Of a DNA stretch of 64,000 bases, positions 42,547-45,733 are shown piece after piece. The stretch comes from Escherichia coli (lineage in GTDB: Bacteria; Pseudomonadota; Gammaproteobacteria; Enterobacterales; Enterobacteriaceae): the NCBI RefSeq assembly GCF_003334405.1, contig NZ_QOWM01000006.1; one strand, 5' to 3'. Numbering within the stretch: position 1 is the first letter of the stretch; each line of letters begins with the position of its first letter. The notes beneath the pieces are model-generated. The model made no database searches. It saw nothing but the letters and a program-made list of their open reading frames with translations, and was not told the origin of the DNA. Made by a program: the position numbers and the translations under genes.

Positions 42547-42571
42547 GAATGATCTCAATGCGCAATTTACA

Positions 42572-42600
42572 GCCCAACATGTCACGTTGGGCTTTTTTTG
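42572..42600 (+). terminator. ilvIH intrinsic terminator
   Basis: cccaacatgtcacgttggg hairpin followed by CTTTTTTT. Confidence 0.65.
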
Positions 42601-42725
42601 CGAAATCAGTGGGAACCTGGAATAAAAGCAGTTGCCGCAGTTAATTTTCTGCGCTTAGATGTTAATGAATTTAACCCATACCAGTACAATGGCTATGGTT
42701 TTTACATTTTACGCAAGGGGCAATT

Positions 42726-43730
42726 GTGAAACTGGATGAAATCGCTCGGCTGGCGGGAGTGTCGCGGACCACTGCAAGCTATGTTATTAACGGCAAAGCG
42801 AAGCAATACCGTGTGAGCGACAAAACCGTTGAAAAAGTCATGGCTGTGGTGCGTGAGCACAATTACCACCCGAACGCCGTGGCAGCTGGGCTTCGTGCTG
42901 GACGCACACGTTCTATTGGTCTTGTGATCCCCGATCTGGAGAACACCAGCTATACCCGCATCGCTAACTATCTTGAACGCCAGGCGCGGCAACGGGGTTA
43001 TCAACTGCTGATTGCCTGCTCAGAAGATCAGCCAGACAACGAAATGCGGTGCATTGAGCACCTTTTACAGCGTCAGGTTGATGCCATTATTGTTTCGACG
43101 TCGTTGCCTCCTGAGCATCCTTTTTATCAACGCTGGGCTAACGACCCGTTCCCGATTGTCGCGCTGGACCGCGCCCTCGATCGTGAACACTTCACCAGCG
43201 TGGTTGGTGCCGATCAGGATGATGCCGAAATGCTGGCGGAAGAGTTACGTAAGTTTCCCGCCGAGACGGTGCTTTATCTTGGTGCGCTACCGGAGCTTTC
43301 TGTCAGCTTCCTGCGTGAACAAGGTTTCCGTACTGCCTGGAAAGATGATCCGCGCGAAGTGCATTTCCTGTATGCCAACAGCTATGAGCGGGAGGCGGCT
43401 GCCCAGTTATTCGAAAAATGGCTGGAAACGCATCCGATGCCGCAGGCGCTGTTCACAACGTCGTTTGCGTTGTTGCAAGGAGTGATGGATGTCACGCTGC
43501 GTCGCGACGGCAAACTGCCTTCTGACCTGGCAATTGCCACCTTTGGCGATAACGAACTGCTCGACTTCTTACAGTGTCCGGTGCTGGCAGTGGCTCAACG
43601 TCACCGCGATGTCGCAGAGCGTGTGCTGGAGATTGTCCTGGCAAGCCTGGACGAACCGCGTAAGCCAAAACCTGGTTTAACGCGCATTAAACGTAATCTC
43701 TATCGCCGCGGCGTGCTCAGCCGTAGCTAA
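42726..43730 (+). CDS. cra: catabolite repressor/activator Cra (FruR), LacI family
   Basis: 334-aa ORF (GTG start) [25 protein letters not shown]... LacI-type HTH. Confidence 0.92.
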
Positions 43731-44250
43731 GCCGCGAACAAAAATACGCGCCAGGTGAATTTCCCTCTGGCGCGTAGAGTACGGGACTGGACATCAATAT
43801 GCTTAAAGTAAATAAGACTATTCCTGACTATTATTGATAAATGCTTTTAAACCCGCCCGTTAATTAACTCACCAGCTGAAATTCACAATAATTAAGTGAT
43901 ATCGACAGCGCGTTTTTGCATTATTTTGTTACATGCGGCGATGAATTGCCGATTTAACAAACACTTTTCTTTGCTTTTGCGCAAACCCGCTGGCATCAAG
44001 CGCCACACAGACGTAACAAGGACTGTTAACCGGGGAAGATATGTCCTAAAATGCCGCTCGCGTCGCAAACTGACACTTTATATTTGCTGTGGAAAATAGT
44101 GAGTCATTTTAAAACGGTGATGACGATGAGGGATTTTTTCTTACAGCTATTCATAACGTTAATTTGCTTCGCACGTTGGACGTAAAATAAACAACGCTGA
44201 TATTAGCCGTAAACATCGGGTTTTTTACCTCGGTATGCCTTGTGACTGGC

Positions 44251-44280
44251 TTGACAAGCTTTTCCTCAGCTCCGTAAACT
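44251..44280 (+). promoter_or_regulatory. Pmra promoter of the dcw cluster (TTGACA-N18-TAAACT)
   Basis: Consensus -35 TTGACA at 44251-44256 and TAAACT -10 at 44275-44280, about 50 bp upstream of mraZ. Confidence 0.65.
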
Positions 44281-44288
44281 CCTTTCAG

Positions 44289-44313
44289 TGGGAAATTGTG
44301 GGGCAAAGTGGGA
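44289..44313 (+). promoter_or_regulatory. MraZ operator: three TGGGN direct repeats at 10-bp spacing
   Basis: tgggaaattgtggggcaaagtggga directly visible in mraZ 5' leader. Confidence 0.7.
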
Positions 44314-44331
44314 ATAAGGGGTGAGGCTGGC

Positions 44332-44790
44332 ATGTTCCGGGGAGCAACGTTAGTCAATCTCGACAGCAAAGGGCGCTTATCAGTGCCTACCCGTTATCGG
44401 GAACAGCTGCTTGAGAACGCTGCCGGTCAAATGGTTTGCACCATTGACATTTATCACCCGTGCCTGCTGCTTTACCCCCTGCCTGAATGGGAAATTATCG
44501 AGCAAAAATTATCGCGTCTGTCGAGCATGAACCCGGTTGAGCGCCGTGTGCAGCGCCTACTGTTAGGTCATGCCAGCGAATGTCAGATGGATGGCGCAGG
44601 TCGATTGTTAATCGCGCCAGTACTGCGGCAACATGCCGGGCTGACAAAAGAAGTGATGCTGGTTGGACAGTTCAACAAGTTTGAGCTGTGGGATGAAACA
44701 ACCTGGCATCAACAGGTCAAGGAAGATATCGACGCAGAGCAGTTGGCTACCGGAGACTTATCGGAGCGACTGCAGGACTTGTCTCTATAA
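44332..44790 (+). CDS. mraZ: transcriptional regulator MraZ
   Basis: 152-aa product [28 protein letters not shown]... Confidence 0.93.
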
Positions 44791-44791
44791 A

Positions 44792-45733
44792 ATGATGGAA
44801 AACTATAAACATACTACGGTGCTGCTGGATGAAGCCGTTAATGGCCTCAATATCCGTCCTGATGGCATCTACATTGATGGGACTTTTGGTCGCGGTGGTC
44901 ACTCACGTCTGATCCTCTCGCAGCTTGGCGAAGAGGGGCGTTTGCTGGCGATCGATCGCGACCCGCAGGCTATCGCCGTTGCGAAGACTATTGATGATCC
45001 GCGCTTCTCCATCATCCACGGACCTTTCTCCGCGCTGGGCGAATACGTTGCCGAGCGCGATCTTATCGGCAAGATCGACGGCATTCTCCTCGATCTTGGC
45101 GTCTCTTCACCGCAACTTGATGATGCTGAACGTGGCTTTTCCTTTATGCGCGATGGTCCGCTGGACATGCGTATGGACCCAACCCGTGGGCAGTCAGCCG
45201 CTGAATGGCTACAAACCGCAGAAGAAGCCGATATCGCCTGGGTATTGAAAACCTATGGTGAAGAGCGTTTTGCCAAACGCATTGCCCGCGCCATTGTCGA
45301 GCGTAACCGCGAACAGCCGATGACCCGCACCAAAGAACTGGCGGAAGTCGTGGCTGCTGCAACGCCGGTGAAAGATAAGTTTAAACATCCCGCGACCCGT
45401 ACCTTCCAGGCGGTGCGCATTTGGGTAAACAGTGAACTGGAGGAGATAGAGCAGGCGCTAAAAAGCTCGCTCAACGTGCTGGCCCCGGGTGGGCGGCTTT
45501 CGATCATCAGCTTCCACTCGCTGGAAGACCGTATTGTGAAACGTTTTATGCGTGAAAACAGCCGCGGTCCGCAAGTTCCGGCAGGGTTACCGATGACTGA
45601 AGAGCAGCTCAAAAAACTGGGTGGCCGTCAGCTGCGAGCACTAGGCAAGTTAATGCCGGGCGAAGAAGAGGTGGCTGAGAACCCTCGTGCCCGTAGTTCA
45701 GTTCTGCGTATTGCAGAGAGGACGAATGCATGA
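44792..45733 (+). CDS. rsmH: 16S rRNA m4C1402 methyltransferase RsmH (MraW)
   Basis: 313-aa product [38 protein letters not shown]...; track ORF trimmed. Confidence 0.95.

Follow-up and report, generated by a model that had tools for sequence, protein, structure and literature searches.

A sigma-70 promoter followed by a GTGG repeat array upstream of Escherichia coli mraZ, very likely Pmra with the MraZ autoregulatory operator, and its conservation across Enterobacteriaceae

The region analysed here lies between cra and mraZ in a 64,000-nucleotide stretch of Escherichia coli DNA (hereafter the window, to which all coordinates refer unless stated otherwise). From 43731 to 44800 the sequence does not differ from that of E. 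coli K-12 MG1655 (100% identity), and the match is present once in 5,424/5,426 complete E. coli genomes. In K-12 the gene order is ilvI, ilvN(H), the fruR leader peptide, cra, mraZ, rsmH, ftsL and ftsI, and the RefSeq annotation of mraZ reads 'division/cell wall cluster transcriptional repressor MraZ'. The leader peptide is a 28-aa ORF between ilvH and cra (42558-42644; 1328-1414 of locus L001), called 'fruR/shl operon leader peptide' in RefSeq. Fifteen nucleotides past the cra stop codon, a perfect 10-bp inverted repeat (TACGCGCCAG / CTGGCGCGTA, 12-nt loop, 43745-43776) without a T-run is likely the hairpin of the cra 3' end; a terminator scan of 43700-44450 found none and did not call this hairpin. 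The features on which our interpretation rests are collected in Table 1.

Table 1. Coordinates of the promoter, the repeat array and mraZ (positions in the window)
Feature	Sequence	Position	Strand	Remarks
Pmra -35 hexamer	TTGACA	44251..44256	+	perfect consensus; invariant in 79/79 aligned Enterobacteriaceae, present in 80/80 loci
Pmra promoter spacer	AGCTTTTCCTCAGCTCCG	44257..44274	+	18 nt in 80/80 loci; unusually conserved
Pmra -10 hexamer	TAAACT	44275..44280	+	4/6 to TATAAT; invariant in 80/80 loci
Pmra (mraZ1p) TSS		44287..44288	+	two published TSS maps; leader of 44-45 nt
MraZ box 1	GTGGG	44288..44292	+	GTGG core invariant, 79/79
MraZ box 2	GTGGG	44298..44302	+	GTGG core invariant; preceding TT conserved too
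MraZ box 3	AAAGTGG(G)	44308..44312	+	AAAGTGG invariant; G44312 specific to E. coli
Possible degenerate fourth in-phase box	GGGG	44318..44321	+	1 mismatch to GTGG; 93% conserved
mraZ CDS		44332..44790	+	152 aa plus stop; two PF02381 MraZ domains, E 1e-22 and 5e-22

The promoter TTGACA-N18-TAAACT had been proposed in an earlier note made from the sequence alone, and both its coordinates and its sequence proved exact on direct reading. It is the top-ranked promoter-scan match in 43700-44450, scoring 10/12 with a perfect -35 hexamer; the same interval holds three promoter-like matches against 1.3 expected, so that the promoter count alone is not significant. Published transcription start site (TSS) maps were placed on the window by subtracting 45302 from the MG1655 coordinate. 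Kim et al. (2012; PMC3415461, Table S1) recorded an mraZ TSS at NC_000913:89589, supported by 29 reads and followed by a 45-nt UTR, and the 51-nt flank given for it, GCCTTGTGACTGG...TAAACTCCTTTCA, corresponds to 44237-44287, which sets the start at A44287. Cappable-seq recorded a TSS at 89590 (44288, score 27.2), the strongest plus-strand start in the cra-mraZ spacer (PMC4782308). The mapping of the start, which the earlier note had named as a check, thus puts the dcw-cluster promoter at this place in both data sets. Mapped onto the window, the published tables put the start 7-8 nt past the -10 hexamer, in keeping with a sigma-70 promoter that has both hexamers, a spacer of 16-18 nt and a mapped start 6-8 nt past the -10. 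The same promoter, likewise with a 45-nt leader, was found in K. pneumoniae (Kim et al. 2012, PMC3415461). An earlier primer-extension estimate, quoted in a passage of PMC7761207, places the start 38 bp before mraZ, which corresponds to 44294; this start, 6-7 nt off the genome-wide maps, stays inside the operator and leaves our reading unchanged.

The -10 hexamer is followed by cctttcag and then by three direct repeats, TGGGA (44289-44293), TGGGG (44299-44303) and TGGGA (44309-44313), separated on direct reading by aattg and caaag, with a start-to-start distance of exactly 10 bp. Three 10-bp-spaced TGGGN repeats just upstream of mraZ had been described before, and their coordinates, sequence, spacing and position are exact; the 10-bp spacing also places the boxes on one face of the helix, as had been claimed. 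The pattern TGGG-N6-TGGG-N6-TGGG occurs once in the 64-kb window when both strands are counted, against 0.01 expected from 100 shuffles, and the exact GTGG-N6-GTGG-N6-GTGG pattern is also unique there. The array thus contains at least three direct GTG(G/T) cores at a 10-bp period, with 6 nt between the 4-nt cores, in the promoter of the dcw cluster and immediately upstream of mraZ. Relative to the mapped start, the first GTGG begins at +1/+2, the boxes lie at about +2, +12 and +22 and the array extends from about +2 to +25/+27, ending 20 nt before the mraZ ATG. The repeats therefore sit within the transcribed leader and not upstream of the start. A Shine-Dalgarno sequence, GTGAGG (44321..44326, plus strand), stands 5 nt before the ATG, with a column conservation of 0.94 over 44322-44331. 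A match to the triple pattern with one mismatch at 44298-44321 brings in a further in-phase tetranucleotide, GGGG, which overlaps the purine-rich region preceding the Shine-Dalgarno sequence; judged by its sequence it is possibly a degenerate fourth MraZ box, and four-box operators occur in M. genitalium and in B. cenocepacia (PMC7761207 for B. cenocepacia).

The protein expected to bind such an array is encoded in cis. MraZ comprises two SpoVT/AbrB-like half-domains with DXXXR motifs, and it aligns at E of about 1e-11 to MraZ chains of M. genitalium and M. pneumoniae, including the DNA-bound cryo-EM structures 9r4j, 9sx6 and 9sz7. The first motif, D11-S-K13-G-R15, is conserved in the structure alignment, where K13 and R15 align with contact residues of the M. 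genitalium protein, and a second DXXXR motif, D87-G-A-G-R91, is visible in the translation. Overproduction of MraZ is lethal, and an R15A substitution in the first DXXXR motif has been found to remove this effect.

We compared this locus across the family. Scanning the genome collection with MraZ yielded 80 loci from Enterobacteriaceae, whose proteins are 88-95% identical to it, and 79 sequences entered the alignment. The TTGACA-N18-TAAACT promoter is found in 80/80 loci, and each of the 80 contains exactly one GTGG-N6-GTGG-N6-GTGG array, invariably 43-54 nt upstream of the ATG, in a scan that covered both strands of 449,588 nt. Column conservation across the 79 sequences is 1.00 for the -35 hexamer, the -10 hexamer and each GTGG core and 0.96 for the 18-nt spacer; it is 0.95 and 0.84 for the two inter-box segments, 0.71 for the six bases past box 3, 0.63 for the rest of the cra-mraZ spacer and 0.72 for the 3' end of the cra CDS. 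The cores and their register are thus kept among relatives while the flanks drift, and at the level of sequence the promoter and its three-box operator stand out as a clean phylogenetic footprint. The comparison also redefines the repeat unit. TGGGN is exact for E. coli, and that part of the earlier description stands, but the TGGG triple is present in 0/80 other species: at box 3, position 44312 is T, C or A in all of them (GTGGTG in 34, GTGGTA in 20, GTGGCG in 15 and GTGGAG in 11). With the third G of box 3 confined to E. coli, the conserved unit in these alignments is not TGGGN but GTGG, offset by 1 nt, which is the universal MraZ box and is preceded by AAA at box 3.

Within E. coli the MraZ boxes are fixed, and the common polymorphism lies in the promoter spacer, where position 44268 is A or C. 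The A of K-12 (CTCAGCTCC) is the minority allele, found in about 1,309/5,424 E. coli genomes by identity over 44245-44335; C is carried by O157:H7, ExPEC XM, U15A, E. albertii and every other genus. One genome in 5,424, E. coli WS3294A (NZ_CP035819.1, locus L085), has a 5-bp deletion, CAGTG, equivalent to 44286-44290, in which both the mapped TSS and the first GTGG box are lost; it is either a natural operator and start-site mutant or an assembly error. About 10 extra bp lie between box 3 and the mraZ ATG in 20/80 species, where the distance is 52-54 nt against 43-45 nt elsewhere (L053, L068, L075, L079, L080 and 15 more, among them Buttiauxella, Cedecea, Kosakonia, Dryocola and others; equivalent to 44313-44331). 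The addition amounts to roughly one helical turn and may be a single ancestral insertion. Another of the loci (L022) lies on contig CACSKA010000010.1, labelled 'Chryseobacterium sp. 18061', yet its mraZ locus is of the Enterobacteriaceae type, encodes a protein 92% identical to E. coli MraZ and shares the promoter and operator; mislabelling or contamination of the record is probable.

The same G44312 that sets E. coli apart raises the question of whether the G-tracts act through their own structure. In E. coli, 44290-44321 reads GGG-N7-GGGG-N6-GGG-N5-GGGG, which fits the canonical G3+N1-7 motif, spans the operator and the pre-Shine-Dalgarno region and is 1 of only 3 such motifs on the plus strand of the window. 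A regulatory G-quadruplex has been argued for S. aureus PmraZ (PMC11796246), where, as in E. coli, a G-rich stretch lies between the promoter and mraZ, and by extension the E. coli tracts could fold, within the non-template DNA strand or the mRNA leader, into an intramolecular G-quadruplex that takes the place of MraZ binding in throttling dcw transcription or translation. We regard this as very unlikely. The formal fit in E. coli, read from the sequence, is owed to G44312, and the three-tetrad motif is kept in 0/80 other Enterobacteriaceae, where the third tract is only GG (GTGGT/C/A). A conserved G-quadruplex function, which we took to require four conserved tracts of at least three G with loops of 1-7 nt, was rejected on this count. 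In addition, the T within each GTGG and the exact 10-bp register are invariant, as a protein-read box needs and a G-quadruplex does not, and the G-richness follows automatically from GTGG(G) boxes placed beside a purine-rich ribosome binding site. Because the G-quadruplex motif is not kept while the T and the register are, we favour a box read by a protein.

The repeats are transcribed (+2 to +27), and E. coli boxes 1 and 3 contain GGA, so they might instead act as RNA in the 45-nt leader, as GGA-type protein sites or as a ribosome stand-by site, with the DNA periodicity being incidental. This appears scarcely credible to us: box 3 is without GGA in the other 80 species, Rfam covariance models gave no match at E <= 1 in 43600-44500, and the strict 10-bp register holds in 80/80 loci while the array stands anywhere from 43 to 54 nt before the ATG, a pattern that marks the geometry of the DNA helix rather than an RNA element. 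DNA binding by MraZ is, moreover, documented in the literature.

A DNA-binding protein other than MraZ, for instance PdhR or CRP, could also be the relevant input at Pmra and the repeats its operator. PdhR gave a 1.7-fold enrichment in ChIP-qPCR and a 'very weak' EMSA shift on an mraZ-promoter probe (Göhler et al.), mraZ is among the CRP genomic-SELEX targets (Shimada et al.), and our motif scan found a CRP-like box, TGTGACTGGCTTGACA (44241..44256, plus strand), with 1 mismatch to the consensus, overlapping the -35 hexamer. However, neither the PdhR probe (44230-44273) nor the CRP-like box reaches the repeats at 44288-44313: each is situated upstream of them and overlaps the -35; a PdhR-like match with up to 4 mismatches occurs nowhere in the spacer, and the left half of the CRP-like box, TGTGA, is not conserved outside Escherichia and Citrobacter. 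Since these sites overlap the -35 and not the repeats, they are possible extra inputs and do not explain the array, and we consider it extremely improbable that the repeats are an operator for such a regulator. The PdhR binding, weak as it was, and the CRP SELEX listing nonetheless suggest that MraZ is probably not the sole input at Pmra, and they point weakly to PdhR and CRP as secondary inputs.

We conclude with high confidence that the site is Pmra (mraZ1p), the sigma-70 promoter of the dcw cluster, together with the MraZ autoregulatory operator. The match to that operator, which the earlier note had asserted, is borne out by the identity to K-12, the TSS maps, the footprint, the MraZ domains and the literature, and nothing contradicts this reading. 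The K-12 literature on Pmra reportedly comprises Hara et al. 1997, Mengin-Lecreulx et al. 1998 and Eraso et al. 2014, the last of which is said in secondary citations to show that MraZ binds exactly these three K-12 repeats. The promoter and its operator are therefore already known, having been published for E. coli between 1997 and 2014 and extended structurally in 2026. A passage of PMC7761207, citing Eraso et al. 2014, states that E. coli MraZ represses Pmra and that it does so through a repeated sequence, located past the -10 box, to which it binds. [quoted passage not shown] What our analysis adds is comparative: the GTGG core, the position of the boxes in the leader, a promoter spacer frozen across the family and a G-quadruplex motif without support from conservation.

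A model that unites these observations with the structural work can be outlined. In the M. genitalium cryo-EM complex the MraZ ring is opened, adjacent subunits each place a beta-strand 'cradle' in the major groove, one box after the next, and Lys13, Arg15 and Arg86 read GTG(T/G). In E. coli, RNA polymerase recognises TTGACA-N18-TAAACT, initiates at 44287/44288 and transcribes mraZ, rsmH, ftsL, ftsI and the genes that follow in the dcw cluster. MraZ, the first product of this transcript, forms an oligomeric ring in which each subunit carries the two SpoVT/AbrB-like half-domains with their DXXXR motifs. Adjacent subunits would dock on successive boxes, with Lys13, Arg15 and Arg91 (E. coli numbering) predicted to read GTG(G) in the major groove; these residue-level contacts are carried over by analogy from the M. 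genitalium homologue, and we likewise infer the number of E. coli subunits engaged. The bound array would cover the start site and the early transcribed region and would thereby occlude RNA polymerase or block its escape from the promoter, with negative feedback on mraZ and on the downstream division and cell-wall genes as the expected result. Given the position of the TSS and the stretch covered by the array, steric occlusion or an escape block is the most likely mode of repression.

The E. coli site shares its basic design with MraZ operators elsewhere. It does not differ from K-12 Pmra/mraZ1p, with the same locus, hexamers, repeats and gene order (cra-mraZ-rsmH-ftsL-ftsI), except in notation: papers on E. 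coli describe TGGGN repeats separated by 5 nt, and the cross-genus comparison gives GTGG-N6. Among Firmicutes and Mollicutes, B. subtilis has three copies of GTGG[A/T]G, Mollicutes have three to four copies of (AAAGTG[T/G]-N3), and the M. genitalium cryo-EM complex has four boxes. They share with E. coli a period of 10 bp, a GTG(G/T) core, placement in the dcw promoter directly upstream of mraZ and A-rich bases before the box (here AAAGTGG). In contrast to them, the E. coli operator shows three clear boxes and no more than one degenerate fourth (GGGG), and it is situated downstream of the TSS; the E. coli protein is moreover reported to be a dodecamer, as against an octamer in the Firmicutes/Mollicutes comparison. 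In B. cenocepacia the repeats of PmraBc follow the -10 and, 'as in E. coli', overlap the TSS, and MraZ binding was observed by EMSA (PMC7761207), but this operator consists of four repeats of 7 nt set 3 nt apart, and its leader measures 100 nt against 45 nt in E. coli.

The upstream half of the cra-mraZ spacer contains conserved elements without an assigned function. Three blocks, 120-370 bp upstream, stand far above background in the comparison of 79 species. The first, at 44023-44086 (44023-44031 plus 44042-44086; conservation of 0.93 over 44042-44086 in 79 species), lies about 230-260 bp upstream of Pmra. It consists of a conserved CTGTTAAC at 44023-30, a variable stretch and then TAAAAT at 44047-52, which is 6 nt before a minor Cappable-seq TSS at 89360 (44058), and the first ~30 transcribed nucleotides, CGCGTCGCAAACTGACACTTTATATTTGC, are conserved too. 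The block looks like a weak upstream promoter with a conserved start of its transcript. The second block, 44135-44173, is a 39-bp conserved non-coding element (0.90 in 79 species) with the consensus TTTTTTCTTACAAATATTCATRACGTTAATTTGCCTCG, also given as TTTTTTCTTACAAATATTCATRACGTTAA(T)TTTGCCTCG; in E. coli it includes an 8-bp palindrome, TAACGTTA, and the published maps record no TSS within it. The third, TTTTGCATTATTTTGTTACA at 43914-43933 (0.91 in 79 species), lies directly upstream of a minor Cappable-seq TSS at 89237 (43935), and a further minor Cappable-seq TSS is at 89143 (43841). These last two fit the statement of 'five transcription starts in the 5' region' in PMC3265435.

Several explanations for these elements were tried and set aside. 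A 21-aa ORF, MTMRDFFLQLFITLICFARWT (44120-44185), at which third-position variation hinted as the cause of the second block, was ruled out as coding: neither its ATG nor its stop is conserved, and 1-nt indels fall inside the block. A structured RNA or sRNA in the spacer was rejected as well, with no Rfam match and a fold of 44058-44232 at z = 0.04 against shuffles. LexA SOS boxes are mentioned in PMC3265435; the LexA 20-mer consensus has no match within 3 mismatches in the window, and a single CTGT-N8-ACAG-like site, which has 2 mismatches, occurs in the spacer. The motif scan of the spacer returned no Cra/LacI-like, IHF or PdhR-like motif within the thresholds used, and one relaxed DnaA-like box (44088-44096, minus strand) in non-conserved sequence.

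The 0.96 conservation of the 18-nt promoter spacer, the candidate fourth box by the ribosome binding site and the three upstream blocks are not accounted for by MraZ, the weak PdhR and CRP data, Rfam families or a coding ORF. They suggest further inputs, and we entertain tentatively, while leaning against it, the idea that Pmra integrates more inputs than MraZ through uncharacterised elements. If this were true, the elements could be sites for further regulators that couple division-gene expression to physiology. Transcription also starts farther downstream, inside the mraZ CDS, at 44399 (89701; Kim 2012, assigned to rsmH) and at 44481 and 44504 (89783 and 89806; Cappable-seq). K. pneumoniae likewise has internal starts, there assigned to mraW, and those inside E. 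coli mraZ are possibly internal promoters for rsmH and the genes downstream of it.
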